Shown here piece by piece: positions 20,080 through 35,790 of a stretch of DNA of 64,000 bases (its first letter is position 1; every line of letters starts with the position of its first letter). This DNA comes from Candidatus Caldarchaeales archaeon (lineage in GTDB: Archaea; Thermoproteota; Nitrososphaeria_A; Caldarchaeales; Wolframiiraptoraceae). The stretch spans positions 160,544-224,543 of the forward strand of contig JBCNVN010000001.1 of NCBI GenBank assembly GCA_039630055.1, given 5' to 3'. The position numbers and the translations under genes were made by a program. Below the pieces are notes generated by a model. The model had not been told where the DNA came from. It searched no databases and worked only from the letters and a program-made list of their open reading frames with translations.

Positions 20080-21457
20080 TTCACCAGCATGTGGATAGGC
20101 TTGAAGATGGCTGCCTCGGCGACTTCAGAGAAAAGCTCGCTGAAGGTTGGATGTGGATGAATCACCTCGAGAGCTGTTCTACTGTCAGCCTTCTCTTAAC
20201 CGCTATCCTGAACGCTTCTCCGATTAGCTCGGTTGCTCTAGCTCCAACTATTGTGAAATCTCCAGTATCTTTCCATCTTCCTGGTCTGGATATTATCCTT
20301 ATAAAACCTTCCGTTTCTTCATCTGCAATAGCTCTACCAAGTGAAGAATAACTGAATCTACTAACTTACTTTGTAGTCTTCTTCTCAGCCTCGCTCCTAC
20401 TATAAATGGACAGAGGCTATCTCTGGATTCTGTAGATCGCTATAGGCACTATCGTGGGATTGAACCTGACCAGCATATTTTCCGCCGCGATAATCCCTTG
20501 TCTAGAAGCTTTATGAGCAAGAAATGGTGGACCGGTCACATCTCCAACCGCATAGACATTCTCTAGATTCGTCCTACAATATCGGTCTACTCTTATAAAC
20601 CCTCTCTCGTCTAGATCTATCCCGAGATCTTCAAGGCCGAGGCCACTGATCGATGGCTTCTTACCAACCGCTACCAGAACGTAGTCTGACACCTCTTCTA
20701 TCATCTCCTTTGGAGTCTCTATAATAGTCTTAACTTTGTCTCCTAATATCTGTGAAGATAAGACCTTAGATGAGAGATTTATTTTTACCCCGATCTCTTT
20801 AAGCCTTCTCTCAACCATCTTGGTGACATCCTTATCGAGACCTGGTAATAGCTGATCCATTATCTCTACGATGGTTACATTACTTCCAAGCTTGGCGAAC
20901 ATTGTCCCAAGCTCTAGACCTATCGCTCCTCCCCCGACGATTAGCAGTTTCTCCGGAATCTTCTCCAACTCTAATGCCTCCCTCGACGTTATTATCTTCT
21001 TACCATCATAAGGAACAGTATTGAGAGATATCTGGGATGCACCTGTAGATACTATAAGATATTCTCCAGAGATCTCTCTTACAGAACCATTCTTCTCTTC
21101 TAATCTTATCTTTAAACTAGGCTTGATAGTTGCTTTTCCAGAATATATCTTTACACCATATCCTTTCAATAAGAATTCTACACCCTCTCTGATCTTTTCG
21201 ACAAGCCTCTTCTTCTTCTCTTGTAGATAGCCCCAATCTATTCTACCATTCTTCAAGACTCCTACTCTTGAAAGCCTATAATACTGGTTAACATTCTCTA
21301 TAAGTATCTTGGATGGTATGCATCCATAGTTTAGACATTCTCCTCCGAGAAGCTCCTTCTCAATTATCGCTGTCTTGATACCCAACTGCGCAAGTCTAAT
21401 AGCTGCTACATATCCTCCTGGTCCACCGCCTATTACGACTGCACCATAATTCTCCAT
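20076..21457 (-). pseudogene. lpdA: Dihydrolipoamide dehydrogenase (LpdA), disrupted by three in-frame stops and one frameshift
   Basis: The N-terminus is intact (GGGPGGYVAA, redox disulfide GGECLNYGCIPSK). The frame is then broken by TAG at 20417-20419, TAA at 20366-20368 and TGA at 20162-20164. The C-terminal domain is still readable (FSYSSLGRAIADEETEGFIRII...GARATELIGE) and continues in another frame as VIHPHPTFSELFSEVAEAA, ending at TGA 20076-20078. Confidence 0.85.
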
Positions 21458-21471
21458 TCCACTACAGCCTC

Positions 21472-22356
21472 CTATGTCTCTCCTCCTCTACTTATTATCG
21501 CTCTCAGATAGAATTCTGAAGCGAGATAAGAACTTCTAGCTAGCGGCCCTGAAGCAACATATCTGAAACCAAGCTCCTCTCCTATCCTTCTAAGTTTCTC
21601 GAATCTTTCAGGGCTTACATATTCTTTTACTGGTATCTGTCTTCTACTTGGTCTTAGATACTGTCCTAGAGTAAGGAAGTCTACACCGATACTCCTCAAA
21701 TCTTTCATGGCCTCGACCACCTCTATCTCCTCCTCTCCCAACCCGAGCATTAGAGAAGACTTGGTAAATAGCTTTGGATTAATTTCTTTAACCAGTTCTA
21801 GTGTTTTTAATGATTTTTCGTATCCAGCTCTAGGATCCCGGACGATTGGGGTCAGCCTTCTCACAGTCTCAAGATTGTGGCCTAAGACATCAGGACCACT
21901 CTCAACGACCATTCTTATTGAACCATAATCATTATTGAAATCTGGTATAAGTACTTCAACCAATGCTCCCGTATTTTTCTTTATCTCTCTTATCGTCTCG
22001 GCATAGATTGAAGCACCACCATCTCTCAAGTCATCCCTAGTAACAGATGTTATAACGACGTATCTTAACCCAAGTTTTTTCACTGCTTCTACAACTCTCT
22101 TCGGCTCATCTAAGTCAACTCTCCCCTCTGGGTTTCCAGCCTTCACTGCACAGAATCTACATGATCTTGTACATATATCTCCTAATATCATTATTGTGGC
22201 CGTACCATGACCCCAGCACTCAGAGATATTTGGGCATAAGGCTTCTTCACAGACAGTTTTTAGATTGGATCTCTTTAAAATAGCATTTACTCTCATATAC
22301 TCTTGACCAGAAGGCAATCTAACCCTAATCCAGCTAGGCTTGCGGAGGCTCTCCAT
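21472..22356 (-). CDS. lipA: Lipoyl synthase LipA (radical SAM)
   Basis: Auxiliary cluster motif CEEALCPNISEC and radical-SAM motif CTRSCRFC. Size is 294 aa. Confidence 0.9.
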   Translation of the reverse strand: MESLRKPSWIRVRLPSGQEYMRVNAILKRSNLKTVCEEALCPNISECWGHGTATIMILGDICTRSCRFCAVKAGNPEGRVDLDEPKRVVEAVKKLGLRYVVITSVTRDDLRDGGASIYAETIREIKKNTGALVEVLIPDFNNDYGSIRMVVESGPDVLGHNLETVRRLTPIVRDPRAGYEKSLKTLELVKEINPKLFTKSSLMLGLGEEEIEVVEAMKDLRSIGVDFLTLGQYLRPSRRQIPVKEYVSPERFEKLRRIGEELGFRYVASGPLARSSYLASEFYLRAIISRGGET

Positions 22357-22514: not shown

Positions 22515-23069
22515 TTGATTGAGATCAGGTGGCATGGAAGGGGCGGTCAAGGAATAGTAACAGTAAGCGACATATTAGCGAGATCAATAATATTGGAGGG
22601 AAAGTATGCACAGCATTTTCCTGAGTTTGGACCTGAAAGATCTGGAGCACCAGTAAAAGCATTTACAAGAATCTCCGATGAACCGATAGAGATCCATACT
22701 GGAATATATGCACCTGATATTGTGGTAATCGTGGATGAGGGTATGTCTAAAAACTTCCATCCATATATTGAAGGATTGAAGGAGAATGGATTATTATTCC
22801 TGAATCTTGGAGATGCATCTAAGCTACATAAACAAGATCTTCCAAACAGTATTCGAGCATACGTAGTCAATGCTAAAAAGATATCTCTTGAAGAGGCTGG
22901 TAGACCGATATTCAACATCCCAATGTTGGGTGGTTTAGTTAAACTATTAAGAATGCCTAGTTTAAGTATAATCGAAGAAGTCTTGAGTAAGAGATTCTCA
23001 AGCGATCTGTTAGAGGTAAACATAAGAATATTGAAGAGAGCTTATGATGAGGTGGAGATTATTGTCTGA
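22515..23069 (+). CDS. porG: 2-oxoacid:ferredoxin oxidoreductase gamma subunit (POR/VOR-type G-D-A-B gene order)
   Basis: Starts IEIRWHGRGGQGIVT, with a TTG start codon. Substrate (pyruvate versus 2-ketoisovalerate) cannot be read from the sequence. Confidence 0.8.
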   Translation: MIEIRWHGRGGQGIVTVSDILARSIILEGKYAQHFPEFGPERSGAPVKAFTRISDEPIEIHTGIYAPDIVVIVDEGMSKNFHPYIEGLKENGLLFLNLGDASKLHKQDLPNSIRAYVVNAKKISLEEAGRPIFNIPMLGGLVKLLRMPSLSIIEEVLSKRFSSDLLEVNIRILKRAYDEVEIIV

Positions 23070-23367: not shown

Positions 23368-24561
23368 ATGAGCAAAGTCGAGTATGCTAAAAGAGTGGCT
23401 CTGATGGGGGATGAGGCTGTAGCATATGCAGTTAAACAAGCAGATGTAGATGTTATAGCGGCTTACCCTATAACCCCCCAGACATTAATCGTAGAGAGGC
23501 TTAGCAAGTATGTTGCAGACGGAGAGTTAAATGCTGCCTTCATCCAAGCTGAGAGCGAGCACTCAGCTCTCTCTATCTGTGTAGGTGCTGCACTTGCCGG
23601 GGCTAGAACGTTCACGTCTACAGCAAGTCAGGGTCTCGCATTAATGCATGAGATACTCTTTATCGCCTCCTCTATGAGAGCGCCTATAGTTATGGCCATA
23701 GCCAACAGGGCACTTAACTCTCCACTAAATATTCACTGCGACCACTCAGATATTATGGATGCGAGAGATACTGGATGGGTACATCTGTTTGCAAACAATG
23801 TCCAGCAAGTATATGACCTTACCCTCATAGCCTTCAAGATGAGTGAAGATCAAAACTTGTTGCTTCCTGTATCAGTGAATCTAGACGGATTCATACTAAC
23901 TCATAGTATCGAGCCTCTCGAAGTCTTACCAGATGAAGAAGTTTGTCAGTTCATCCCCCATAGACCTTATCGATACGAGATAGATTTCGAGAAGCCTTTA
24001 GCATATGGGGTTATGGCCTTACCAGATACTTATATGGAGTTTAGGAAGCAGCTCTATGAAGCAATACTAGGAGCTCCAGAAGTATTAGATAGGGTAACTA
24101 GAGAATACTACAAGATCTCTGGGAGAAAATATAATCCTATAGTTTCATACTATACTGAGGATGCAGATGCTGTAGTAGTAGCATTGGGATCAACTGTAGA
24201 CACTCTGAAATATGTGGCTAGAAAGCTTAGAGAGAAGGGTCTCAAGGTTGGTGTACTTGGAATAACTATGTATAGGCCCTTCCCGGAGAGAGAAATCTTG
24301 GAAGCCTTAGAGAATGTAAAATGTTTAGCCATCATGGATAGAGCATATTCTTATGGAGGTGTTGGAGGACCACTATATACAGATATCCTCTCAATGCTTT
24401 ACAAGCATGGGGTTAGAAAGATAGTTGCAGACTTTGTCTATGGACTTGGAGGAAGAGACTTCAAGATTACAGATTCAGAAGAGCTATTTAGAAAGATGAT
24501 GGTAGCGATCGAGCATAATGGATATGATAGAGATATCTACTGGTGGGGGGTGAAAGAATAG
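23368..24561 (+). CDS. porA: 2-oxoacid:ferredoxin oxidoreductase alpha subunit
   Basis: 397 aa. GDEAVAYAVKQADVDVIAAYPITPQT is a typical alpha-subunit N-terminus. Confidence 0.85.
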   Translation: MSKVEYAKRVALMGDEAVAYAVKQADVDVIAAYPITPQTLIVERLSKYVADGELNAAFIQAESEHSALSICVGAALAGARTFTSTASQGLALMHEILFIASSMRAPIVMAIANRALNSPLNIHCDHSDIMDARDTGWVHLFANNVQQVYDLTLIAFKMSEDQNLLLPVSVNLDGFILTHSIEPLEVLPDEEVCQFIPHRPYRYEIDFEKPLAYGVMALPDTYMEFRKQLYEAILGAPEVLDRVTREYYKISGRKYNPIVSYYTEDADAVVVALGSTVDTLKYVARKLREKGLKVGVLGITMYRPFPEREILEALENVKCLAIMDRAYSYGGVGGPLYTDILSMLYKHGVRKIVADFVYGLGGRDFKITDSEELFRKMMVAIEHNGYDRDIYWWGVKE

Positions 24562-24562
24562 T

Positions 24563-25510
24563 ATGACCACAATCGAGAAACATTTCAAGACGATAAGAGA
24601 CCTGCCCGTAGAGGATTATTTCGCTCCTGGTCATAGACTATGTGCAGGATGCGGAGCCTCTCTTGCAGTGAAGCTTGCAATGAAGGCTATAAGAATGCCT
24701 ACAGTTGTAGTTAATGCAACTGGATGCGTAGAGGTTTCTACATCGATGTTTCCATATGTTAGTTGGAGGGTTCCATGGGTTCACATAGCATTCGAGAATA
24801 CTGCAGCGGTTGCAAGCGGAATATCGGAGGGATTAAAGATTCTAAACAAGAAAAGGGGTAAGATGATGCATGACGTCATCGCGATAAGTGGAGATGGTGG
24901 AACATTCGACATCGGCTTACAGGCTCTCTCAGGAGCTTTGGAAAGAGGTCATAAGATGCTCTACATATGCTATGATAACGAAGCCTACATGAATACAGGC
25001 GTCCAGAGGTCTGGGGCAACCCCTATAGGTGCGGCTACTACGACCAGCCCTATCGGACAATTGATCCCCGGTAAACAAGAGAGGAAGAAAGACTTGATAG
25101 GAATAGTTGCGGCTCATAGAATACCTTATGCGGCCACAGCCTCTATCTCTCATCCTCTAGACTTTGTAAACAAGGTTAGGAAAGCTCTAGAGATTGAGGG
25201 GCCGACGTTTATCCATGTTATAACACCGTGCGCCCTAGGTTGGAGGCATCCACCATCGCAGACGATCAAGATCGCTAGACTAGCTGTTGAGACTAGATAT
25301 TTCCCAGTATACGAGGTTGAGGAGGGTAGGGTTAAGATAAACATTAGAGTATCGAGACCTAGACCTCTTGAAGAGTTCTTGGAAGCACAGGGAAGATTCA
25401 AGCATCTCTTCGAACCTCAGAATAGGCATATTCTAGAAAATCTTAAAACTCAGATTGAAGAAAATTGGAATAGGCTTTTAAGGCTAGAAGAGCTAGGTAT
25501 ACGTATCTGA
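24563..25510 (+). CDS. porB: 2-oxoacid:ferredoxin oxidoreductase beta subunit (TPP / Fe-S)
   Basis: Motifs GHRLCAGCGASLA and ISGDGGTFDIGLQALSGA (TPP-binding GDG). Confidence 0.85.
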   Translation: MTTIEKHFKTIRDLPVEDYFAPGHRLCAGCGASLAVKLAMKAIRMPTVVVNATGCVEVSTSMFPYVSWRVPWVHIAFENTAAVASGISEGLKILNKKRGKMMHDVIAISGDGGTFDIGLQALSGALERGHKMLYICYDNEAYMNTGVQRSGATPIGAATTTSPIGQLIPGKQERKKDLIGIVAAHRIPYAATASISHPLDFVNKVRKALEIEGPTFIHVITPCALGWRHPPSQTIKIARLAVETRYFPVYEVEEGRVKINIRVSRPRPLEEFLEAQGRFKHLFEPQNRHILENLKTQIEENWNRLLRLEELGIRI

Positions 25511-25556: not shown

Positions 25557-26537
25557 TTATAGAATGTTGATCCCTGTGATAGCTTGAATCTTAGAGATTA
25601 TCGAACTAGTCAGTTTATCATCTAATCTTGTCCTAATATCATATAGAGATACAAGCATCTCATTTACCCTTCTAACCACCCTCTGAGGATATGGTATAGA
25701 CCTGAACTCTATATACAGTCTCTCCAAATCTTTATATGTTAAGGTTTTACCATAGAGAGCTCTGAGGATCGCTGACAGCTGGTTTAAAGTAGCCCTATAG
25801 CAATTTATATGTGAAGAATGATTGTATAGACAGTTACCACAGTTTGATGCTAAAAGCTCTCTCATAGGACCTCTATTAGTGATCCTTACATGTTTTGCAA
25901 CCTTGACATAGTTATCTTTCTTCAACCTAGACAAAGCTTTGTAGAGTGTACTGACGCTAATCCCTCCTTTAAGCACTCTCCTGAAAAGTTCATCTACAGT
26001 CGATTCTCCATATATACAGAGATAATCTATAATCTTCTGATAGAGTGTTGGTGGAGCTTTAGATAGATATTCTTCTAACTTCTTCTGTAGTAGGTTTAAC
26101 ATCATACTGTACTCTGGGACTGAGTCAAATCCTAGCCTTCTAAAACATGTCTCAACTTGAAGATTAAAATCGTTCATCATAGTAGATGATAAAGAATCAT
26201 AGTCTGTAGACTTCATATAAGAGTTAAGGAGAGACCATAAGTAGTATACGCATTCATCTTTCCATCCACTCCTAACAATCCACGAAAACTTATTTAATGC
26301 ATCTAGTGTAGATAGTTTATCTACAAAGTATATCTCCCTGGTAGCTTTCTTGAAGAAATTCTTGGATGATAGCCTCTCTAAGGCCTCTATACCCCTATTA
26401 TTCATAGCCACCAAGACAGCATCTTGATCGTTTGATCTCTCAACGAGAACAATAAGTGGAGACCTGATATAGTTCTCTTCACTAAATTCGTATGGTTTGA
26501 ATTCTGCTAAGAGGGATAGTAGTTCGACCTCTTTCAC
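25557..26537 (-). CDS. Uncharacterised protein with a winged-helix-like segment and a Cys/His cluster
   Basis: 326 aa. The candidate wHTH is TVDELFRRVLKGGISVSTLYKALSRLKKDNYV, followed by CGNCLYNHSSHINC. The gene lies antisense between the two OFOR operons. Confidence 0.5.
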   Translation of the reverse strand: MKEVELLSLLAEFKPYEFSEENYIRSPLIVLVERSNDQDAVLVAMNNRGIEALERLSSKNFFKKATREIYFVDKLSTLDALNKFSWIVRSGWKDECVYYLWSLLNSYMKSTDYDSLSSTMMNDFNLQVETCFRRLGFDSVPEYSMMLNLLQKKLEEYLSKAPPTLYQKIIDYLCIYGESTVDELFRRVLKGGISVSTLYKALSRLKKDNYVKVAKHVRITNRGPMRELLASNCGNCLYNHSSHINCYRATLNQLSAILRALYGKTLTYKDLERLYIEFRSIPYPQRVVRRVNEMLVSLYDIRTRLDDKLTSSIISKIQAITGINIL

Positions 26538-26626
26538 ATAGAAAATATTGGAAAAAAGCGAATATTAGCTTTTCTTTAAATAAGCCCGAACGATACAATC
26601 TATGTAAAAAGTCTGGGTGATAGCCA

Positions 26627-26911
26627 GTGTCATTAAAGATTATTAGAGAACCGATAAATAAGAATATACAAAAAATACCCCTCGGGATCATAAATATCAT
26701 ACCTGAAAGATGTAAAGAATGCGGTTTCTGTGTAGAGCTCTGCCCTAGGGATGTCCTAAAGGTTGGTGAAGAACGAAATATGAAAGGTTATAGGTGGCCA
26801 AAGATAGCGGATGGAAAAGCCTATGATTGTATCGCTTGTAGAATGTGTGAATGGATATGTCCAGAATTCGCTATATTTGTCAAAGAAGTCGATAGGAGGG
26901 AGTTCAGCTGA
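26627..26911 (+). CDS. korD: 2-oxoacid:ferredoxin oxidoreductase delta/ferredoxin subunit (KOR-type D-A-B-G order)
   Basis: Cys motifs CKECGFCVELCP and CIACRMCEWICP. GTG start. The symbol is assigned from gene order only. Confidence 0.7.
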   Translation: MSLKIIREPINKNIQKIPLGIINIIPERCKECGFCVELCPRDVLKVGEERNMKGYRWPKIADGKAYDCIACRMCEWICPEFAIFVKEVDRREFS

Positions 26912-28056
26912 TGTCCAGCGAGCTTAAGCTCTTAAAGCCGGGGATACACTTTATGATGGGTAATATAGCTTGTGCAGAGGCTGCGTTGATAGCTGGATGC
27001 GGATTTTATGCAGGATATCCAATAACACCCTCCAATGAAATAGCTGAGCATATGAGTAGAAGGATGCCTGAATTGGGAAGACATTTTATACAGATGGAGG
27101 ATGAGATAGCAAGTATAGTAGCAGTTCTCGGCGCTTCTGCAGGAGGGGTGAAGAGTATGACCGCTACATCCGGTCCAGGCTTCTCATTAATGATGGAGAC
27201 GATTGGTTTATCAGCTATGCTCGAGCTCCCATGTGTAATAGTAGATGTTCAGAGAGCGGGGCCGAGCACAGGGATCCCCACCTTTGTAGGTCAAGGAGAT
27301 GTCATGCAGGCTAGATGGGGATCTCATGGAGATTATGAGCTAGTAGTCTTCTCACCATCATCCGTTCAAGAATTCTTCGATCTAACTATTGAAGCATTTA
27401 ATGTATCGGAATGGCTGCGGATACCAGTGATCGTTCTGTCAGATGAGGTCGTAGGTCACATGTACGGTAAACTTGAAGTCCAGCCATACGAAAAGATCAC
27501 AATAATCAATAGAAAGAAGTATGATGGAGCTAAAGAAGATTATCTTCCATACGATTATGAGACACTAGTCCCATACTTTGTAGCTGCTGGGGATGGATAT
27601 AGAATACATATGACTGGCTTGACACATGATGAGAGAGGATATCCATCTCTAGAGATAGAAGACTCTAATAAACTTATAGAGAGACTGGTTATGAAGGTGA
27701 GGAAGAATGCAAGAAACCTATGGAAATACGAGAGCTACTTCATAGATGATGCGGATGTAATCGTTATAACCTTTGGCATAACAGCTAGATCGGCGACAGA
27801 AGCAGTTAAGAGAGCGAGAAGTGAGGGTTTGAAAGTTGGTCTACTCAAACTATTGACGCTGTGGCCTTTCCCAGAAGAACCTGTTAAGACCGCTACCCAG
27901 TATGCGAGGAGAGTTCTCGTAGCCGAGATAAATATGGGTCAGCTAATCCATCCGGTTAAAGAGGTTGCAGAATGTCCAGTAGCAGGAATAAATTATCCAA
28001 TAGGTTACGTTCCACCACCAGAATATATTCTAGACGGTATTAGGGCGGCGGTGTGA
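26911..28056 (+). CDS. korA: 2-oxoacid:ferredoxin oxidoreductase alpha subunit
   Basis: 381 aa with GNIACAEAALIAGCGFYAGYPITPSNE. It overlaps korD by 1 nt. Confidence 0.8.
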   Translation: MSSELKLLKPGIHFMMGNIACAEAALIAGCGFYAGYPITPSNEIAEHMSRRMPELGRHFIQMEDEIASIVAVLGASAGGVKSMTATSGPGFSLMMETIGLSAMLELPCVIVDVQRAGPSTGIPTFVGQGDVMQARWGSHGDYELVVFSPSSVQEFFDLTIEAFNVSEWLRIPVIVLSDEVVGHMYGKLEVQPYEKITIINRKKYDGAKEDYLPYDYETLVPYFVAAGDGYRIHMTGLTHDERGYPSLEIEDSNKLIERLVMKVRKNARNLWKYESYFIDDADVIVITFGITARSATEAVKRARSEGLKVGLLKLLTLWPFPEEPVKTATQYARRVLVAEINMGQLIHPVKEVAECPVAGINYPIGYVPPPEYILDGIRAAV

Positions 28057-28925
28057 TGGGGATGGCTCAGAAACAGATTCTGAGAGAAAATATCGTTGGA
28101 GAAACCCCGAGAGATGACCTTATAAGGAAAGATAGATTTCCTCACATATGGTGTCCAGGATGCTCTTTAGGAACGGTCTTGAAATGCTATGTAGAAGCTA
28201 TCGCATCTTCCAATATACCTGTAGATAAGCATGTGGTGGTATCAGGGATAGGTTGTACTGGTAGGATTGCTGGATACGTTAAACTCGACTCTTATCATGT
28301 TACACATGGAAGACCGATAGCATTTGCTGAAGGTTTAAGGATCGTTAGACCAGACTTAGAAGTAACAGTTATCAGTGGAGACGGAGACCTAGTGACCATA
28401 GGTGGAAACCATTTCATACATGCCATTAGAAGAAATGTCGATATAAACGTCTTCCTCGTCAATAACTTCATATATGGGATGACTGGGAACCAGATGGGAT
28501 CAACCACACCAATAGGAGCGAAGAGTTCTACGAGCCCATATGGTTGCCCAGAACACCCATTCAATCTTCCTCTACTAGTAGCATCCCTAGGAGCGCCATT
28601 TGTCGCAAGATGGACTACCCTTCATGCTAGACAACTTGCAGATGCGATGAAGAGAGCTATGCAGGTTAAAGGATTTGCATTTATAGAGATAATAACCTCA
28701 TGTCCGGTTGGATTCGGATCATATAATGAGTTGAGAGATGGTCTAGACTTCATAAAACTATTCAGAGAGAGCTGCGTAGTAGATCATACAGCAGATCTTA
28801 GCAAAGTTGGAATTACACTAAGACCTGGTGAGCCTATAATTCTTGGAAACTTCGTTGATAGAGAGGTCCCAAGCTATCATGATCTGGAAAGAGAGGTTTT
28901 CAAGAAGGCTGGGTGGTTAAAGTGA
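28053..28925 (+). CDS. korB: 2-oxoacid:ferredoxin oxidoreductase beta subunit (TPP)
   Basis: Motifs WCPGCSLGTV and ISGDGDLVTIGGNHFIHA. It overlaps korA by 4 nt. Confidence 0.8.
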   Translation: MMGMAQKQILRENIVGETPRDDLIRKDRFPHIWCPGCSLGTVLKCYVEAIASSNIPVDKHVVVSGIGCTGRIAGYVKLDSYHVTHGRPIAFAEGLRIVRPDLEVTVISGDGDLVTIGGNHFIHAIRRNVDINVFLVNNFIYGMTGNQMGSTTPIGAKSSTSPYGCPEHPFNLPLLVASLGAPFVARWTTLHARQLADAMKRAMQVKGFAFIEIITSCPVGFGSYNELRDGLDFIKLFRESCVVDHTADLSKVGITLRPGEPIILGNFVDREVPSYHDLEREVFKKAGWLK

Positions 28926-29449
28926 GATGGGATATTAGATGGGCTGGATTCGGTGGTCAAGGAGTTATTAGAGCTGGAGAGCTACTTGGGAGAGCCGCTG
29001 TGAGACAGGGATTGGACTCTGCTATGAGACCTATGTATGGTCCCGAGAAGACGGGTGGATGGTCTAGAGCCGATGTAGTCATCTCAGATCAGCCGATAAT
29101 CTTCCCCCTAATAGTTAGACCCGATATACTCGTAGCTATGTCTCAAGATGGTATGAATAGGGATGGTGCATCCCTCAGAAAAGATGGATACTTACTGATA
29201 GATGGAGAATTGGTGAAGGATATAAGATGTCATCCTTCCAAGATATACTCTGTCGAGGCAACTAGCATAGCAGATAATCTAGGAAGAAGGATAATGGCGA
29301 ACATCGTTATGCTGGGAGCTTTTACCAAGGCATTCAAGATAGTGGACCGAGAGATTCTTCTAAAGACGATAATGGAGACTTTTCCAAAAGCTGCTGAACT
29401 CAATAAGAAAGCCTTCCAGCTAGGTGAAGAAAATTTGAAGGAGGTGTAG
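28913..29449 (+). CDS. korG: 2-oxoacid:ferredoxin oxidoreductase gamma subunit
   Basis: Starts IRWAGFGGQGV. Size is 178 aa. It overlaps korB by 13 nt. Confidence 0.8.
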   Translation: MVKVRWDIRWAGFGGQGVIRAGELLGRAAVRQGLDSAMRPMYGPEKTGGWSRADVVISDQPIIFPLIVRPDILVAMSQDGMNRDGASLRKDGYLLIDGELVKDIRCHPSKIYSVEATSIADNLGRRIMANIVMLGAFTKAFKIVDREILLKTIMETFPKAAELNKKAFQLGEENLKEV

Positions 29450-29455
29450 ACATAG

Positions 29456-32400
29456 TTGCCTGATGAGGTATTGGTTATAGGTGGAGGTATAGCTGGGATA
29501 CAGTGTTCGTTGGACTTGGCCAATGCAGGTGTAAAAGTAGTTCTAGTCGAGAAGTCTCCGACCATCGGTGGGAAGATGGCTATACTAGATAAGAACTTCC
29601 CAACACTAGACTGTTCTATCTGTATCGAGGCACCTAAGATGAGCGAGGTTGGGAAGCATCCCAACATAGAACTACTAACTCTAGCCGAGGTAGTGAATGT
29701 AGAGAGAGATGGTAAAGACTATGTGGTTGAGATATATCAGAAGCCTCGATATGTAACAAGCGAATGTAGTAGATGTGGTCTCTGCATAGATGCATGTCCC
29801 GTACTCTTGAAGAATGAGTTCGATTATGGAATGGCTGTTAGAAAAGCGATATATACCCCTATACCTCAGTCAGAGCCTGGAGCATACGTCATTGATATCG
29901 AGAACTGCTTGAACAAGCCTCCAAACTATCTTCCATGCGATAGATGTATCCAAGTATGTGGCCCGAAATGCATAGACTTCTTCATGAAGCCTAAACTGAT
30001 AAAGAAGAAGGTCAAGGCGATAATCATAGCAACAGGGTTCGAGGTCTTCGATGCAACGAGAATACCTGACTATGCTTACGGACTACATCCAGATGTATTA
30101 ACCTCTATCGAGTATGAAAGACTTCTACAATCGACCGGTCCAAGCGGAGGAGAGATAGTCAAACCTAGTAATGGAAAACATCCTGAGAATATACTATTCA
30201 TACTCTGTGTTGGTTCGAGAGATCCTAGATATAACAGATATTGTTCAAGGTTCTGCTGTATGTATACTATAAAAGAGGCGGTCCAGACGGTGGAACATGG
30301 AATAAAGAATGTAGACATACTCTACATGGATATCCGAGCATATGGTAAAGGGTTTGATGGATTCTATAAGAGGGCTAAAGAAGAGGGTGTAAGATTCATA
30401 AAAGGGAGGGCTGGAAGAGTAATACCGGATGGAGAGAAGCTGAAGGTAAGATTTGAAAATATTGCTGATGGAAGGATGGAGGAGAAAGATTATGATATGA
30501 TTGTTCTAGCAGTAGCTTCAGAGCCTCCGCCAGACCTAGCCAAATTGGCGAAAATACTAGGTATAGAGTTGGATGAAGATGGCTTTGTCAAGACTACACC
30601 TATAAATGGAAAGATGGTGGCCACAAGCCGGGAAGGGATCTTCGTCTGTGGAGGAGCCTCAGGCCCCAAAGACATCGCAGATAGTGTTACAGAAGCGGGA
30701 GCAGCAGCCTCTGCAGCACTTGAATATATAAGAGAGAAGAGCTGGCCCTCGGAGGAGTTTAAAGAGACCATCCCATCGGAGGGAGAGCCGAGGGTAGGTG
30801 TATTCGTATGCCATTGTGGGTCGAATATCGCAGGGGTAGCAGATGTTAAATTGCTCGCTGAAGAGGCTGGAAAGATCCCTGGCGTAGTCCACTCTGAAGA
30901 TCTTAGATTTGCATGCGCAGGAGTATATACAAAGTACATTGAAGAAGTTATTAAAGAGAAGAAGATAAATAGGCTCGTCGTAGCCGCATGCTCTCCTAAA
31001 ACTCATACAAACGTATTTACTGGAGCTGCGATGAGGGCAGGCTTAAACCCCTACCTATTCGAGATGGCGAATATAAGAAATCTAGATACATGGGTTCATG
31101 CAGCTTATCCGAAGGAGGCAACAGAGAAAGCTCTAGACATGATAAAGATGGCGGTCGCCAAGGCGAAGCTGCTCAAGCCGCTTCACGTCGTCAAGCTTCC
31201 AGTAACTAGAAGAGCATTAGTCGTTGGAGGAGGTGTAGCAGGGATGGCGGCGGCCACCAGCTTGGCTCGTCAAGGTTTCGAAACATACCTTGTAGAAAAA
31301 GAAGATCGGTTGGGAGGACTATTGAGATACTTGGATACCATAGCGCCAGAGAATATTAAGGCAGAAGACCTCCTCAAAGAGATGGAGAGAGAACTATATG
31401 ATTCTGGGGTAAGGGTAATTCTCGGAGCAAAGATAGAGTCTGTCAGCGGATATATTGGAAACTTCTTGGTAAACCTATCTAATGGAGAGAAGCTAGAGGT
31501 TGGGTCGATTATACTGGCTACAGGTGCGAAACCCTATCAACCTCAAGGCCCATTCCAATCAAATGGTGGCCAGATAATTACTTCACTAGACTTAGATGGA
31601 CGGCTCAAGAATGGAGATAACATGGATGCCAAGAACGTTGTCTTCATAGGATGTGTAGGATCTAGATATGATTCAAAAGGCTGCTCTAGATTCTGCTGTC
31701 AAGTAATGATAAAGCAGGCTGTAAAGTTGAGAGAGATTGGAAAGAATGTGTTCATACTATACAAGGATATTAGAACTTATAGTAGGAAGGCGGAAGAATT
31801 ATATGAAAAGGCTAGATCTCTTGGAGTAAGATTCATAAAATATGACCCTGAGAAAAGGCCGGAAGAAGCGGTAAAGATAGAGAATGGATTTGTAACTGTT
31901 AGAGATGAACTACTTGGAGAAGATATCCAGATACCTGCCGACCTAATAGTCTTAAACATAGGCTTAACACCGAACGATGATATAAATCCAATAGTAGAAC
32001 AGTTGAAGATAGCGAGAGATGAGGCAGGTTTCCTACTCGAACTCCATCCGAAGCTGGGTCCAGTAGAATCTATGGTGGGAGGAGTATTCTTGGCGGGAAC
32101 AGCTCAAAACCCCAAAGATGTAAGGGAAGCGATCACTCAAGGTCTAGCCGCTGCAGCCAAAGCATCCGCACTACTCGCTAAAGATACTATCGATAAGGAG
32201 CCTCTAATGCCCAGGATCAACTATGATAAATGTACCTACTGTCAAAGATGTGTCCAAGTATGCACCTTCTCTGCTTTAAGAGGAGAGTTAAGAAAGAGTC
32301 TCGAGCTTATCAGTGCCCTCTGTCAAGGTTGTGGATGCTGCTCAGCTGAATGTATGGTTGGAGCGATAGAGGCTCCAGGATTTACAGATGAACAGATCAT

Positions 32401-32863
32401 TGCTCAGATAGATGCAGCTCTAGAAGATAAACCTTATGAGAAAGCTATAGTGTTCGCATGTAACTGGTGCTCTTATGCGGGAGCAGACCAAGCAGGTATA
32501 GAGAAGCTCCAGTATCCTCCAAGCTCTAGAGTCATCAGGACTATGTGCTCTGCCAGGATCTCACAGAAATTCATATTGAGAGCATTCGAGAAGGGTGCGG
32601 CAGTGGTAATGGTTACGGGATGCTGGCCCCAAGACTGCCACTATAATTACGCCAACCTCAATACCGAGAAGAGGTTTAGGCAGTGGAGAAAGATGCTTGA
32701 GGCGAGAGGCATAAACCCTGAGAGACTGATACTCCACTGGAACAGTGCAGCCGAGAGCAAGAGGTGGGCGGCGAAGATGAAGGAGGTTGATGAGCTGATA
32801 AGAAAGATTCCGAGAGAAGAGATTATCGAGACAATCCAGAAGATTGGAGGTGTAAAGAAGTGA
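29456..32863 (+). CDS. Giant HdrA-family flavoprotein: two FAD modules, an HdrA N-domain, a 2x[4Fe-4S] ferredoxin domain and a C-terminal MvhD domain
   Basis: 1135 aa. GGGIAG lies at aa 9-14, followed by LDCSIC and inserted Cys motifs (CSRCGLCIDACP, CDRCIQVC). The HdrA N-domain is VFVCHCGSNI...AACSPKTH...ANIRN (aa about 446-550). A second GGGVAG lies at aa 591-596. CVGSR...CSRFCC is present in both modules. The ferredoxin domain is CTYCQRCVQVC / CQGCGCCSAEC. The MvhD domain is FACNWCSYAGAD...TGCWPQDCHY. Confidence 0.8.
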   Translation: MPDEVLVIGGGIAGIQCSLDLANAGVKVVLVEKSPTIGGKMAILDKNFPTLDCSICIEAPKMSEVGKHPNIELLTLAEVVNVERDGKDYVVEIYQKPRYVTSECSRCGLCIDACPVLLKNEFDYGMAVRKAIYTPIPQSEPGAYVIDIENCLNKPPNYLPCDRCIQVCGPKCIDFFMKPKLIKKKVKAIIIATGFEVFDATRIPDYAYGLHPDVLTSIEYERLLQSTGPSGGEIVKPSNGKHPENILFILCVGSRDPRYNRYCSRFCCMYTIKEAVQTVEHGIKNVDILYMDIRAYGKGFDGFYKRAKEEGVRFIKGRAGRVIPDGEKLKVRFENIADGRMEEKDYDMIVLAVASEPPPDLAKLAKILGIELDEDGFVKTTPINGKMVATSREGIFVCGGASGPKDIADSVTEAGAAASAALEYIREKSWPSEEFKETIPSEGEPRVGVFVCHCGSNIAGVADVKLLAEEAGKIPGVVHSEDLRFACAGVYTKYIEEVIKEKKINRLVVAACSPKTHTNVFTGAAMRAGLNPYLFEMANIRNLDTWVHAAYPKEATEKALDMIKMAVAKAKLLKPLHVVKLPVTRRALVVGGGVAGMAAATSLARQGFETYLVEKEDRLGGLLRYLDTIAPENIKAEDLLKEMERELYDSGVRVILGAKIESVSGYIGNFLVNLSNGEKLEVGSIILATGAKPYQPQGPFQSNGGQIITSLDLDGRLKNGDNMDAKNVVFIGCVGSRYDSKGCSRFCCQVMIKQAVKLREIGKNVFILYKDIRTYSRKAEELYEKARSLGVRFIKYDPEKRPEEAVKIENGFVTVRDELLGEDIQIPADLIVLNIGLTPNDDINPIVEQLKIARDEAGFLLELHPKLGPVESMVGGVFLAGTAQNPKDVREAITQGLAAAAKASALLAKDTIDKEPLMPRINYDKCTYCQRCVQVCTFSALRGELRKSLELISALCQGCGCCSAECMVGAIEAPGFTDEQIIAQIDAALEDKPYEKAIVFACNWCSYAGADQAGIEKLQYPPSSRVIRTMCSARISQKFILRAFEKGAAVVMVTGCWPQDCHYNYANLNTEKRFRQWRKMLEARGINPERLILHWNSAAESKRWAAKMKEVDELIRKIPREEIIETIQKIGGVKK

Positions 32864-34005
32864 GCAAGACTGTAATGGTAAACCTGGAGTTTATGGAGAA
32901 ACTTTCACAACTAACAGCAAATACATCTAATTATTGTTATCAATGTGGAACATGTACCGCCTCATGTCCATTCAATATTCTTAAGCCTGACACGATAAAT
33001 CCTAGAAAGATAGTAAGGAGAGCTCTTCTCGGAGTACAGTATGATGATGGAAGCCTTTGGCTCTGCTCTACATGTGGATTATGTGAAGCTAAATGTCCAT
33101 GGAGTATAAGGATACCTGAAGTAGTTAGAGCCTTCAGACAGCTTGCGGTAGAGAAAAGAAAGATACCTCAGAAACTAGAAGAGACACTCTGGATGATATA
33201 TGAAGATGGAACAGCCTTCCCAGGCTCTAGTGTTGAGAGAGCTTCATGGATTGAGGGGATGAAGATCAAGGATGCCCTAAAAGAGAAGGTTAAGGTCCTA
33301 CTATATGTGGGATGCTTAACATCATTCGATAAGAGACTGCAGAAGATTGCAAAGTCTCTAGCAGCCGTACTAGCTAAAGCAGAAGTAGATTTTGGAATAC
33401 TAGGTAGAGAGGAGAGATGCTGTGGAGATGTAGTATACAATATTGGAGAAGAAGCTTTCCTAGAAGAACTGGCCACCCAAAATATTGAGAGATTTAACAG
33501 AACAGGTGCAGAGAGCATCATTACAATCTCACCCCACTCTGCCCACATGTTTAAGAAGATATATCCAAGATATGGATTAAAAATCCCTGCAATGCATTAT
33601 ATCGAGTTTCTAGCAGACCTTATCGAGAGAGATAAGATAAGGTTGGAGAAGCCTGTAAACGGCGTGGTAACAGTACATGATCCATGCTATCTTGGAAGAT
33701 ATCTGAAGTTATATGAAGAGCCGAGGAAGATGCTCTCAAACATACCGGGTCTAAAAATCGTTGAGATGAAGGATAACAGGGAGAATACGATATGCTGTGG
33801 AAGTGGAGGTGGAAGACACTTCCTCGAGACCCATGAAGAGAGGCTCAGCCATTACAGGATAGCGCAGGCGGCTGAAACAGAGGCTAAGACCATCGTAGCC
33901 CCATGCCCCTTCTGCATACAGAACTTTGAAGACAGCATAAAGATAAAGAGACTAGATATGAATGTTAGAGACGTAGTAGAGCTTATCAACCTCTCTGTAA
34001 GTTAA
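32860..34005 (+). CDS. HdrC/HdrB-type fusion (HdrD/DsrK-like) Fe-S protein with two CCG domains, the first lacking its terminal CxxC
   Basis: The N-terminal 2x[4Fe-4S] motifs are CYQCGTCTASCP and CSTCGLCEAKCP. CCG domain 1 is VGC-x34-CCG-x34-SPHS. CCG domain 2 is PCYLG...ICCGSGGG...PCPFC. Confidence 0.75.
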   Translation: MSKTVMVNLEFMEKLSQLTANTSNYCYQCGTCTASCPFNILKPDTINPRKIVRRALLGVQYDDGSLWLCSTCGLCEAKCPWSIRIPEVVRAFRQLAVEKRKIPQKLEETLWMIYEDGTAFPGSSVERASWIEGMKIKDALKEKVKVLLYVGCLTSFDKRLQKIAKSLAAVLAKAEVDFGILGREERCCGDVVYNIGEEAFLEELATQNIERFNRTGAESIITISPHSAHMFKKIYPRYGLKIPAMHYIEFLADLIERDKIRLEKPVNGVVTVHDPCYLGRYLKLYEEPRKMLSNIPGLKIVEMKDNRENTICCGSGGGRHFLETHEERLSHYRIAQAAETEAKTIVAPCPFCIQNFEDSIKIKRLDMNVRDVVELINLSVS

Positions 34006-34014
34006 GATATAGAG

Positions 34015-34992
34015 ATGATTGGAGATTATTATAGTGGAATATGGGTATTTTTAGAAAGGCGTAGAGACCAGATAGCCGAGCCATCCCTTGAAGTATTGGG
34101 AAAAGCACGACAGCTAGCCGATAAGCATAGAGATGAACTAGTAGGGTTGATAGCTGGCTCTCATAATCTAGATGGTCTCGGCGAACAAGCAATACAGTAT
34201 GGAGCCGACAAGGTCTACATAATCGAAGACCCACTACTAGAAGAGTACTCAACTATTCCATTTGCAGAAGCATTATCGAGAACCATCACTAGATATAAGC
34301 CGAATATACTACTTTATCCAGCTACCAGGAATGGTAGAGATCTAGCAGGAAGAATATCTGCAAAGCTCAATCTCGGACTGTCAGCCAACACCGTATGGCT
34401 AGACATCTTAGAGGATGGATCTCTATTAGCCGGGGTCCCCGGGTTCGGAGGCTCGATAATGGCGGTAACAAAATGTTTAACGAGACCTCAGATGGCCACG
34501 GTGAGACCTGGAGCATTCCCGAAACCCCGTCCAGACTCATCTAGAAAAGGTATAATTGAAAGAGTAGATGTAGGTAAGCTTCCAGAACCTAGAACCGTTG
34601 TAATAGAGAGGATGACTTTTGAGGTTGAAGATATAAGCAAAGCTGAGATGATAGTTGTTGCTGGCGCAGGCGTTAGAGATAGGGTCGAGATGGTTAAGGA
34701 GCTTGCTGAAGAACTGGGATGGGCATTTGGAGCATCTAGACCCCTCTCAGATGAAGGCCTCGTTCCTAGAGATATCTTTATCGGGGCGACTGGAAAGGTG
34801 GTCAGACCTAAGATCGCATTGATAATAGGTGTTAGCGGTGCAGCTCACTTCATCTCAGGGATAGCTGAAGCAGAGAAGATAATCTCGATAAACATCGACC
34901 CGGAGGCACCTATACACAGCTACTCAGACTACTCGATAGTTGGAGATGGATACAAGATAGTTCCAAAACTCTTAGAGAAGCTAAGGATGTGA
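34015..34992 (+). CDS. etfA: Electron transfer flavoprotein alpha subunit
   Basis: The C-terminal FAD domain is AFGASRPLSDEGLVPRDIFIGATGKVVRPKIALIIGVSGAAHFISG...YSIVGD. Confidence 0.85.
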   Translation: MIGDYYSGIWVFLERRRDQIAEPSLEVLGKARQLADKHRDELVGLIAGSHNLDGLGEQAIQYGADKVYIIEDPLLEEYSTIPFAEALSRTITRYKPNILLYPATRNGRDLAGRISAKLNLGLSANTVWLDILEDGSLLAGVPGFGGSIMAVTKCLTRPQMATVRPGAFPKPRPDSSRKGIIERVDVGKLPEPRTVVIERMTFEVEDISKAEMIVVAGAGVRDRVEMVKELAEELGWAFGASRPLSDEGLVPRDIFIGATGKVVRPKIALIIGVSGAAHFISGIAEAEKIISINIDPEAPIHSYSDYSIVGDGYKIVPKLLEKLRM

Positions 34993-34998
34993 AGTAAG

Positions 34999-35790
34999 AT
35001 GATGCATGTGATAGTATGTATGAAGATTACTCCAAAATCTGAACAAGTTAAGCTAGACCCATCGACAAAGACGATAATAAGAGAAGGGGTAGAGAATGAG
35101 ATAAACCCTGCAGATAAGAATGCATTAGAAGCCGCCCTACAACTTAAGGATAAACATAATTGTAAGGTAACCGTGCTTGGGATGGGGCCACCGATCTGGG
35201 AACCCTTCATGAAGCTGGCGATCGCTATGGGAGCAGATGATGCAGTTCTAGTATCAGATAAAGCTTTTGCAGGAGCAGATACATTAGCGACTAGTAGAAC
35301 ACTGGCAGAAGCAATAAAGAAGATAGGAGAATATCATATAATATTGTGTGGAGAAGAGTCTAGTGATGCTGGAACAGGTCACGTCCCCCCAAGCATCGCA
35401 GAGTTCCTAAACATACCCCAGATAACCTACGTTAATAGTGTTGAGATAGTTGATGGTAAGATTAGAGCGAAGAGAGTGCTTGAAGGAGCATATGAAGTCC
35501 TAGAATGTGGCCCTCCAGTTCTACTATCTATCGAGTATGGATCTAATACACCGCGATTTCCTGATTTTAGAAGAAAGAGATGGGCGGATAAAGAATTCAA
35601 GCTTAAAGTCTTGAGTATAAAGGATCTACAACTTAACGAGGAGGAGGTAGGGTTGAAGGGAAGCAGAAGTATCGTAGAAGAATTGAGAGAGATGGGTTTG
35701 AAAGAGAGGGCTAGACAGAAGATTACAGGGTCGGAGGATGAGATCGTATCCCAGATACTTGACATCATCAGGCCATACATCAAAAAGTAA
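34999..35790 (+). CDS. etfB: Electron transfer flavoprotein beta subunit
   Basis: Motifs VIVCMKITPKSEQVKLD...EINPADKNALEAALQLKD and CGEESSDAGTGHVPPSIAEFLNIPQITYV. Confidence 0.85.
   Translation: MMHVIVCMKITPKSEQVKLDPSTKTIIREGVENEINPADKNALEAALQLKDKHNCKVTVLGMGPPIWEPFMKLAIAMGADDAVLVSDKAFAGADTLATSRTLAEAIKKIGEYHIILCGEESSDAGTGHVPPSIAEFLNIPQITYVNSVEIVDGKIRAKRVLEGAYEVLECGPPVLLSIEYGSNTPRFPDFRRKRWADKEFKLKVLSIKDLQLNEEEVGLKGSRSIVEELREMGLKERARQKITGSEDEIVSQILDIIRPYIKK

Follow-up and report, generated by a model that had tools for sequence, protein, structure and literature searches.

HdrA proteins that carry two thioredoxin reductase-like (TrxR) domains in a single chain are classified as type II HdrA, within which the class ‘A3+MVH’ has eight domains and lengths of up to 1182 aa (PMC12054007), and fused HdrAs with complementary loss of the N-terminal domain (N-domain) and of Cys197 have been noted in anaerobic methanotrophic archaea and in Moorella (PMC9012536). 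The first structure of such a protein, reported in a 2026 preprint, is that of BamE from the class II benzoyl-CoA reductase of Geobacter metallireducens, whose authors speak of ‘a fused HdrA dimer’ and of domain permutation. BamE TrxR1 holds the bifurcating FAD, with Lys280 at N5 and Cys59-Cys62 nearby, and the FAD of TrxR2, with Gln768, is non-bifurcating, lies off the branching point and was judged structural; BamF is an MvhD-type adaptor, BamD is HdrD-like, and an electron-transferring flavoprotein (ETF) docks on BamD as the high-potential acceptor (bioRxiv 10.64898/2026.04.10.717634). Here we describe hdrAA-mvhD, a gene for a fused double HdrA with a C-terminal MvhD domain, together with the operon in which it lies, in a 64,000-nt stretch of DNA from a Candidatus Caldarchaeales archaeon (the window, within which all coordinates are counted).

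Given the catalogued A3+MVH class and the BamE structure, the protein architecture is already known and is not new. What makes the locus interesting is that, across non-methanogenic archaea and a large number of bacterial phyla, this protein is in fixed partnership with a 2-oxoacid:ferredoxin oxidoreductase (OFOR), an HdrD of the ETF type and an ETF. The operon has the order porDABG-hdrAA(MvhD)-hdrD-etfA-etfB, with hdrAA-mvhD as the fifth of eight genes, and is kept in Nitrososphaerota, Thermoplasmatota, Chloroflexota, Elusimicrobiota, Armatimonadota and Rokubacteria. Judging from sequence and from analogy with solved complexes, we think it rather likely that the fused HdrA is a pseudo-heterodimer forming the core of a soluble OFOR/HdrAA-MvhD/HdrD/EtfAB complex that would bifurcate or confurcate electrons.

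The fused HdrA-MvhD chain and its two flavin sites

The reading frame of hdrAA-mvhD opens with a TTG codon, and homologues that begin M-x-D-x-V-L-V-I-G-G-G at 100% coverage agree with this start. A preliminary description of the window, made from the letters alone, had read the same 1135-aa frame, and every motif was found where it had been placed: GGGIAG at aa 9-14, GGGVAG at aa 591-596, LDCSIC at aa 51-56 in module 1, and two HdrA Cys blocks at aa 246-276 (C251, C263, C267, C268) and aa 728-756 (C733, C743, C747, C748). The parts of the chain are as follows.

29456..32863, + strand: hdrAA-mvhD, fused double HdrA with C-terminal MvhD, 1135 aa, type II HdrA class ‘A3+MVH’, BamE+BamF-like
29456..30745, + strand: module 1, TrxR-like FAD domain 1 (aa 1-430), predicted bifurcating site, aligning with HdrA 146-517
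Key residues of module 1: GGGIAG 9-14, D52-C53-S-I-C56, E221, C251/C263/C267/C268 and K273, invariant in 64/64 homologues
29744..29989, + strand: inserted ferredoxin (aa ~97-178), Pfam Fer4_7/Fer4_16 at aa 103-169, 2x[4Fe-4S]
30785..31180, + strand: HdrA N-terminal-type domain (aa 444-575), aligning with HdrA 3-140, invariant C452, C454, C487 and C512
31199..32179, + strand: module 2, TrxR-like FAD domain 2 (aa 582-908), GGGVAG 591-596, C733/C743/C747/C748
32201..32380, + strand: C-terminal ferredoxin (aa 916-975), Pfam Fer4_21 at aa 920-972, aligning with HdrA 573-640
32441..32809, + strand: MvhD domain (aa 996-1118), Pfam FlpD 3e-43, PDB MvhD chains 1e-28 to 1e-32

From the N terminus the order is TrxR1 with its inserted ferredoxin, HdrA N-domain, TrxR2, C-terminal ferredoxin and MvhD. 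The solved HdrA 5ODC_A (E 7e-184) aligned in three pieces: aa 5-377 with HdrA 146-517 (TrxR and inserted ferredoxin), aa 444-610 with HdrA 3-169 (N-terminal domain and the beginning of the second TrxR), and aa 812-991 with HdrA 470-652 (the end of TrxR and the C-terminal ferredoxin). The N-domain accordingly lies between the modules, as had been proposed; the HdrA alignment of module 2 jumps HdrA residues ~232-315, which bears out the claim that this module has no inserted ferredoxin, and MvhD does start at nt 32441 (Pfam FlpD/MvhD at aa 998-1118, E 3e-43). Several Pfam FAD Rossmann families match at both GxGxxG sites. An AlphaFold2 model built from an alignment of 64 full-length homologues was confident (pLDDT 83.7, pTM 0.85), and its top Foldseek matches were HdrA chains, matched by each half of the model (TM-score 0.73-0.92 normalised to the target, 34-44% identity). 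Membership of the HdrA family, the two FAD/TrxR modules, the complementary domain loss and the fused MvhD are thereby upheld, and the E-value of 7e-184 to 5ODC_A together with 1137 bits to the NCBIfam HdrA2 model excludes chance. The domain map, with two TrxR domains in one chain and a C-terminal MvhD, agrees with the published definition of ‘A3+MVH’. No solved fused-dimer HdrA was present among the PDB sequences or the Foldseek library searched, a set without the class II benzoyl-CoA reductase entries.

Conservation was read from the alignment columns of the 64 homologues. All 33 tabulated Cys predicted to bind Fe-S clusters are conserved, 32 of them in 64/64 sequences and C733 in 63/64. Eight lie in the inserted ferredoxin (104, 107, 110, 114, 151, 161, 164 and 168), four in the N-domain, four each in the TrxR1 and TrxR2 blocks, eight, giving 2x[4Fe-4S], in the C-terminal ferredoxin, and five in MvhD (C1002, C1005, C1031, C1056 and C1061), for which a [2Fe-2S] cluster is predicted. 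The TrxR1 and TrxR2 blocks align with the HdrA-specific block of 5ODC (CxGSR...CS(R)xCC), whose Cys bind a [4Fe-4S] cluster beside the FAD. The Gly residues of GxGxxG are invariant or nearly so at both FAD sites. The predicted cofactor set of the chain is 2 FAD, 7 [4Fe-4S] and 1 [2Fe-2S], with the inserted ferredoxin as the predicted low-potential branch by likeness to HdrA and BamE.

The two flavin sites are unequal. In module 1, K273, E221, D52, C53 and C56 are each found in 64/64 homologues, with K273 and E221 equivalent to K409 and E356 of HdrA (M. thermolithotrophicus numbering). Module 2 lacks the DCSIC motif, the ferredoxin insert and a conserved Lys: position 753, the K409 equivalent, is G21/S8/K6/A6/N6/T5 (K in the window protein), position 754 is a conserved Gln (Q59/H5) with no CxxC in the module, and the E356 equivalent is E57/D6 (D714 in the window protein). 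The K409/E356 hallmarks of bifurcation are thus found at one site only, in module 1. This asymmetry, K273 and DCSIC against a variable 753 and Q754, matches that of Lys280/Cys59-Cys62 against Gln768 in BamE, and from the conservation and the BamE precedent we infer that the bifurcating FAD resides in module 1. C56, the Cys197 equivalent, is present only in module 1, and the N-domain precedes module 2; by analogy with HdrA, C56 of module 1 presumably completes the N-domain cluster. Module 2 is probably a non-bifurcating, scaffold-like pseudo-partner that would supply the N-domain cluster and the path through the C-terminal ferredoxin and MvhD.

A second reading of the same residues is that both FADs bifurcate, so that the chain would run two rounds of flavin-based electron bifurcation one after the other; this has been put forward for the type II HdrA of methane-metabolising archaea, and 75% of type II sequences have K409/E356 (PMC12054007). 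Module 2 of the window protein carries K753 and D714 at the equivalent sites, and its FAD motif and adjoining [4Fe-4S] ligands are kept in all or nearly all homologues. However, Lys occupies position 753 in only six of the 64 homologues, module 2 has neither a CxxC pair nor an inserted ferredoxin of its own, and in BamE, the sole solved fused HdrA, the second FAD is the structural one (bioRxiv 10.64898/2026.04.10.717634). We regard double bifurcation as improbable, and keep a single bifurcating site in module 1 as the preferred assignment.

The preliminary description also saw an internal module duplication. Two HdrA-type modules are indeed there, but ‘duplication’ overstates the case: modules 1 and 2 share 34% identity over 205 aa (E 9e-27, 97 bits), and we rejected a recent tandem duplication at this identity. 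Module 1 gives 359 bits over 373 aa with canonical HdrA (44% identity by Foldseek), and its being closer to canonical HdrA than to module 2 fits the published phylogeny of type II HdrA, which favours a fusion of two diverged HdrA classes, A6-like and A12-like, the A6-like class having no N-domain and no C-terminal ferredoxin (PMC12054007). A GltD/NfnB-type module 2, which the preliminary description had said would undo its claim, was rejected as well, since the best PDB match of module 2 alone (aa 582-915) is HdrA at 1e-50, compared with 7e-6 for the GltD small chain, 45 orders of magnitude apart. HdrL, which that description had mentioned among known large forms, contains GltD and was the wrong comparison for an HdrA-type module; the position of the second-Rossmann GxGxxG in module 2 is occupied by the Cys block, which sets the protein apart from HdrL/type III.

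That a sequencing or assembly error joined two adjacent hdrA genes can be dismissed for practical purposes. A search of a 5.8-billion-protein collection returned at least 120 full-length protein clusters from independent assemblies, and a scan using one genome per species found at least about 600 loci. Single Logan contigs cross the module junction in two hot-spring runs (29328-31558 and 30460-31791), with even depth of 11-15x and no joints, and the only indel listed falls outside the ORF. We therefore rejected an assembly fusion, which the preliminary description had named as a possible undoing of its claim. The best 120 clusters measure 1094-1166 aa at 94-100% coverage and 54-91% identity, with one exception of 1602 aa, and their hosts are Aigarchaeota/Nitrososphaerota, Thermoplasmata, Dehalococcoidia, Anaerolineae, Armatimonadota, Rokubacteria and Elusimicrobia. 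By the best match, at 91% identity, the host of the window is Aigarchaeota/Nitrososphaerota-like, which corrects the crenarchaeal setting of the preliminary description. The layout of ~1130 aa is no oddity, being common in many archaeal and bacterial phyla and already catalogued. The exception (P0063, Candidatus Caldarchaeum sp.) has 59% identity to the window protein, is ~470 aa longer, and carries precomputed matches to PF14890 and PF14528, which we take to be intein-related families, pointing to an intein insertion in this fused HdrA.

The eight-gene operon and its partner proteins

The genes around hdrAA-mvhD, with a possible promoter element ahead of them, are listed here in order.

26575..26582, + strand: candidate archaeal TATA box TTTAAATA in AT-rich intergenic DNA, ~45-52 nt ahead of the start of porD, read by eye and possible only
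26627..26911, + strand: OFOR delta (94 aa, ferredoxin-like, 2x[4Fe-4S]), Pfam Fer4, nearest NCBIfam OGOR_delta, OorD
26911..28056, + strand: OFOR alpha (381 aa), Pfam POR_N and PFOR_II, NCBIfam PRK08659 at 512 bits against a cut-off of 411
28053..28925, + strand: OFOR beta (290 aa, TPP-binding), Pfam TPP_enzyme_C, nearest NCBIfam 2-oxoglutarate:ferredoxin oxidoreductase beta
28913..29449, + strand: OFOR gamma (178 aa), Pfam POR, NCBIfam TIGR02175 at 93.9 against a cut-off of 81.1
32860..34005, + strand: HdrD/BamD/EtfD-like Fe-S protein (381 aa), Pfam CCG x2 and Fer4, overlapping hdrAA by 4 nt
34015..34992, + strand: EtfA (325 aa), Pfam ETF and ETF_alpha, no N-terminal ferredoxin domain
34999..35790, + strand: EtfB (263 aa), Pfam ETF

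Gene junctions range from -13 to +9 nt (beta and alpha overlap by 4 nt), with GGAGG-like sites ahead of the internal starts. The first four genes encode a four-subunit OFOR of the OorDABC/KorDABG type, with alpha (PRK08659, ‘2-oxoacid:acceptor oxidoreductase subunit alpha’) and gamma both above curated cut-offs. The sequence is present in hot-spring metagenome DNA; RNA evidence of co-transcription was not found, as only DNA runs contain the sequence.

Operon conservation was read by tblastn of the window proteins on fetched loci. The complete eight genes occur in the same order in Thermoplasmatota (L001, L008), Dehalococcoidia (L002), Elusimicrobiota (L003) and Anaerolineae/Chloroflexota (L004, L015); another Elusimicrobiota locus (L005) has the same order up to its end within etfA, and three incomplete loci (L006, L007, L036) agree with it. 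The same operon was found in Armatimonadota (L081), Rokubacteria (L082) and a further archaeon (L083), and the delta subunit heads it in other phyla too. When the flanking ORFs of 14 loci were clustered all against all, no conserved gene emerged outside the eight, which thus behave as one transferable unit. We found no earlier account of an OFOR-Hdr-Etf operon in the literature covered, from which the HdrA-module review of Appel et al. 2021 was missing, and both HdrA diversity papers treat other gene contexts (PMC12054007, PMC9012536). The operon context appears to be undescribed, although a prior description is possible.

The Armatimonadota operon is flanked on one side by nitrous-oxide reductase (nosZ, nos_propeller/Cupredoxin) and NosD genes (L081 1-3593) and on the other by nitrate-reductase-type genes (Nitrate_red_del, NrfD; L081 16733-19402), and with such denitrification genes around it the operon is not limited to strict fermenters. 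A sister subfamily (~44% identity) in Phycisphaerae, Planctomycetes and Gemmatimonadota retains porDABG-hdrAA-mvhD-hdrD and has, in place of etfAB, another bifurcating module made of a type Ia hdrA-mvhD, hdrC and hdrB. In one such locus, from a Phycisphaerae metagenome-assembled genome (L035), an in-frame TGA at 15530-15532 stands at the Cys197 position (MDCSI*IL) of the type Ia hdrA-mvhD, and it probably encodes selenocysteine rather than marking a broken gene.

The HdrD-like protein looks like an ETF adaptor and electron wire, not a disulfide reductase, as far as its residues and its relatives indicate. Its cubane sites are C26/29/32/36 and C69/72/75/79. CCG-2 is intact, with all five Cys (C276, C312/313, C349/352), and CCG-1 is degenerate, with C152 and C187/188 remaining and the CxxC replaced by S224-P-H226-S227. 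The best PDB match is mycobacterial EtfD (9ojn_A, 2e-43), in which C581-P-H583-C584 is aligned with SPHS and His583 with H226. In EtfD, His583 completes the noncubane cluster and renders it non-catalytic (PMC13083937); in BamD five Cys and a His ligate the proximal noncubane cluster, whereas the distal site is degenerate and the pocket for the heterodisulfide is occupied by His230/Trp325/Tyr356 (bioRxiv 10.64898/2026.04.10.717634). H226, F321 and F351 of the window protein sit 4-5 positions off those BamD residues when compared by numbering alone, and most orthologues have W and Y at positions 321 and 351. SPH[SC] occurs in 10/10 etf-linked HdrD orthologues and C[PA]EC in the etf-less sister subfamily, and this restriction to etf-linked orthologues supports a contact between HdrD and ETF. 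With a His-completed site, an altered CCG-1 and adjoining etfAB, the protein groups with the HdrD-like proteins that interact with ETF (EtfD, BamD, FadF/DgcB type).

These features bear on the idea that the complex is a true heterodisulfide or thiol-disulfide reductase with HdrD as its catalytic, disulfide-reducing subunit. Such a role could be read from the two Pfam CCG domains, from the resemblance to TfrB/HdrC/HdrB, and from the NCBIfam HdrA2 model, which the fused chain passes with 1137 bits against a cut-off of 1100. That score is summed over three stretches of a protein ~360 aa longer than the 777-aa model, and with CxxC changed to SPH[SC] in CCG-1 the noncubane cluster pair needed for disulfide cleavage is incomplete. 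The retained His fully ligates the remaining cluster, as in the non-catalytic EtfD and BamD, the operon and those window ORFs that were annotated (part of the ORFs were scanned) contain no hdrB or hdrC, and the hosts include bacteria with no known use of coenzyme M or coenzyme B. We hold disulfide reduction to be very improbable. The NCBIfam name ‘CoB-CoM heterodisulfide reductase HdrA2’ over-annotates the window protein and should not be used.

By similarity ranking the ETF is closest to bifurcating-type (group 2) ETFs, in which EtfB has a second FAD in place of AMP and which react with NADH. EtfA matched the bifurcating-type structures compared (CarDE, Bcd-EtfAB, EtfABCX, A. fermentans Etf and LctBC) at 4e-63 to 3e-53 and non-bifurcating ones at ~1e-26, and EtfB matched them at 7e-48 to 8e-36 and 1e-21 to 7e-13, respectively. 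The N-terminal ferredoxin domain of CarE and LctC is missing from EtfA. The EtfB segment ‘SDAGTGHVPP’ is divergent, and is nearer to the bifurcating-type ‘DGDTAQVGP’ than to the human ‘DDDCNQTGQ’. One of the Thermoplasmatota loci has a second, more distant etfB-etfA pair right after the operon's own etfA-etfB (L001 16710-18428).

In the window, a second OFOR set (gamma, alpha and beta at 22515-23069, 23368-24561 and 24563-25510, + strand) lies 1-4 kb upstream of the operon; no delta was seen, and the set is not conserved beside the operon in other phyla. Between it and the operon is a 326-aa ORF without a Pfam match (25557-26537, - strand). Just upstream of the OFOR/Hdr region are lipoate metabolism genes (19441-22356, - strand), namely an LplA/B-type ligase (19441-20079) and a lipoyl synthase (21472-22356), with a 346-aa thioredoxin-reductase-like flavoprotein between them (20417-21457, - strand). 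Hdr-like systems of sulfur oxidisers use lipoate-binding proteins. An 800-aa ORF at 17042-19444 (- strand) had no Pfam match at E<=1e-5.

Proposed electron wiring and net reaction

Starting from the observed anatomy, residue conservation and operon conservation, we infer cofactor roles, docking sites, direction and net reaction, with the wiring drawn from HdrABC and BamDEF-ETF by likeness. Module 2 would act as the ‘partner protomer’ of the canonical HdrA dimer, contributing the N-domain cluster, the entry path through the C-terminal ferredoxin and MvhD, and the second FAD. On the high-potential branch, electrons would pass from the module-1 FAD to the TrxR1 cluster, the HdrD cubanes, the His-ligated noncubane cluster and the alpha-FAD of ETF. 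The low-potential branch would lead from Cys53/56 and the N-domain cluster to the inserted ferredoxin and on to ferredoxin or OFOR delta, and the C-terminal ferredoxin and MvhD would form a third branch. If the ETF is of the bifurcating type, its beta-FAD would bring in a site for NAD(H) and a further one for ferredoxin, and two three-way flavin junctions would then share one high-potential HdrD wire.

Precedents for the attachment of OFOR point in two directions. In Hdr supercomplexes already known, the inserted ferredoxin is where an enzyme with a hard reductive step (Fwd/Fmd, BamBC) is wired in, which favours OFOR on the low-potential branch; MvhD normally docks the donor dehydrogenase, which cuts against it.

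The role of MvhD is also central to a different arrangement, in which ETF would pass electrons from acyl-CoA dehydrogenases encoded elsewhere into HdrD, these would be joined with low-potential electrons from OFOR or ferredoxin at the module-1 FAD, and they would leave via MvhD to an outside enzyme, for instance a hydrogenase of the Mvh type, formate dehydrogenase or a module that reduces F420 or NAD(P). MvhD is the docking adaptor for the donor or acceptor dehydrogenase in all solved Hdr complexes, as is BamF, and its Cys are invariant here; EtfD-type proteins accept electrons from ETF, and in one archaeal locus (L083) an acyl-CoA dehydrogenase lies ~5 kb from the operon. However, Pfam scans of 20 further window ORFs found no hydrogenase, formate dehydrogenase, FrhB or acyl-CoA dehydrogenase, no such partner is conserved beside the operon in other phyla, and the host lineages, which include a denitrifying member of the Armatimonadota, are unlikely to share one. 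A bifurcating-type ETF with an acyl-CoA dehydrogenase moreover already confurcates without Hdr. We consider confurcation through an ETF hub with an outside partner unlikely.

With no further conserved partner, reactions that need only OFOR substrates, NAD(H) and ferredoxin are favoured, and our preference is for a reaction, reversible in direction, that would couple 2-oxoacid/acyl-CoA+CO2 with NAD(H) and ferredoxin. As a tentative net reaction, 2-oxoacid and NADH may together reduce ferredoxin, the reverse being a ferredoxin-driven carboxylation with NADH formed. With textbook potentials of ~-520 mV for the 2-oxoacid and ~-320 mV for NADH and a 1:2 stoichiometry, we estimate that this reaction would be near equilibrium at E(Fd) of ~-390 mV. 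Two further options for the net function, a plain NAD+-reducing OFOR with ferredoxin cycling and an outside partner docking at MvhD, each seem rather unlikely. Many hosts are respiring heterotrophs (the Armatimonadota locus being an example), which favours the oxidative direction.

Several points weigh against a bifurcating complex of this kind. The subfamily is so far known from its genes, and the likeness to BamE and BamD is drawn from residue numbers in print, at offsets of 4-14, and from features in common. ‘Bifurcating-type’ for the ETF is a similarity ranking, with a divergent EtfB motif. The window protein has Lys at 753, so that its module 2 could still stabilise a reduced flavin, and for many type II HdrAs it has been argued that bifurcation may take place at each of the two TrxR domains (PMC12054007). 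There is no obvious mid-potential donor in the operon or the scanned window ORFs; OFOR may dock either on the inserted ferredoxin or on MvhD, or may stay apart from the complex; and a plain 2-oxoacid:NAD+ reaction would not require so much machinery.

In its most specific form our proposal is possible but falls short of probable: a soluble supercomplex so far undescribed, of OFOR, HdrA/MvhD, HdrD and a bifurcating-type ETF, would have two bifurcating flavins joined by HdrD, would link the oxidation of 2-oxoacids, or a reductive carboxylation, directly to NAD(H) and ferredoxin, and would have spread horizontally over at least six phyla in both domains of life. Together with the HdrA-HdrBC sister, it would define a family of bifurcation machines wired to OFOR and comparable with Fwd-Hdr and BamBC-BamDEF. 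Should the eight proteins assemble into one complex, they would constitute a new flavin-based enzyme for bifurcation or confurcation. Such a complex would bear on how, in these lineages, ferredoxin-level electrons from 2-oxoacid oxidation are exchanged with the NAD(H) pool without Rnf, and would give a second, independent example of an HdrD-to-ETF branch, so far seen only in benzoyl-CoA reductase. Coming from a thermophile, it lends itself to purification and cryo-EM.

Comparison with known systems

The Bam system offers a close likeness. BamE, whose residues were compared by published numbers, is also a fused HdrA dimer with permuted domains and an N-terminal TrxR1, and its Cys59-62/Lys280/Gln768 would correspond to C53-56/K273/Q754 here at offsets of 6-14. 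BamE with BamF likewise has 7 [4Fe-4S], 1 [2Fe-2S], 2 FAD and an MvhD-type adaptor, and the Bam system has an HdrD-like subunit with one altered noncubane site and an ETF on the high-potential branch. Unlike the long, Sec-containing BamF, however, MvhD is fused and short here; the BamBC tungsten enzyme and the BamGHI NADH/ferredoxin module are not found in the operon, the annotated window ORFs or the related loci; a four-subunit OFOR is co-encoded upstream; and the ETF, which looks bifurcating-type, has its genes within the operon.

Type II ‘A3+MVH’ proteins share the two TrxR domains per chain, the complementary N-domain and Cys197, and the C-terminal MvhD (PMC12054007). They have been catalogued in mcr-carrying archaea, beside hdrBC, fdhB and an inactive molybdopterin protein, or beside metFV (PMC12054007, PMC9012536), whereas our protein comes from a host that is not a methanogen and is partnered by OFOR, HdrD and EtfAB. 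The HdrA of Moorella MetFV-Hdr and HdrA3/4 of anaerobic methanotrophs are related fused forms; for HdrA3/4, Chadwick et al. (PMC9012536) describe the opposite order, with the N-domain-bearing unit first.

All HdrA domains and cluster ligands of the methanogen complexes MvhAGD-HdrABC and Fdh-Hdr-Fmd (5ODC, 7BKB, 8RVU) can be recognised in the window protein, and 7BKB similarly has an enzyme with a hard low-potential reaction wired to the complex. Those complexes are symmetric homodimers in which both FADs are active, MvhD is a chain of its own, HdrBC is present and the substrate is a heterodisulfide; the window protein is a single asymmetric chain that lacks HdrBC as partner and probably carries out no disulfide chemistry. 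The type Ia HdrA2B2C2 of Methanosarcina acetivorans resembles our protein in its C-terminal MvhD fusion and, as our protein may, uses ferredoxin directly, with no separate dehydrogenase module, but differs in having one TrxR module (model of 777 aa), HdrB2C2 as partners and CoM-S-S-CoB as substrate (PMC5296606).

The partner proteins have their own relatives. The soluble domain of EtfD/EMO-type ETF:menaquinone oxidoreductases (9OJN) aligns with the HdrD-like protein at 2e-43 and shares the cluster-completing His and the ETF partner, but these enzymes are membrane-bound and have haem b and a linear [3Fe-4S] cluster (PMC13083937), whereas the window HdrD is soluble, has no Cys for the linear cluster, and would be coupled to HdrA rather than to quinone. 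Finally, the bifurcating ETFs (Bcd-EtfAB 5OL2, CarCDE 6FAH, LctBCD 7QH2 and EtfABCX 7KOE) are nearest to the window EtfA and EtfB and also have a dedicated high-potential partner, which here would be an HdrD-HdrA module in place of a flavin dehydrogenase or quinone reductase.

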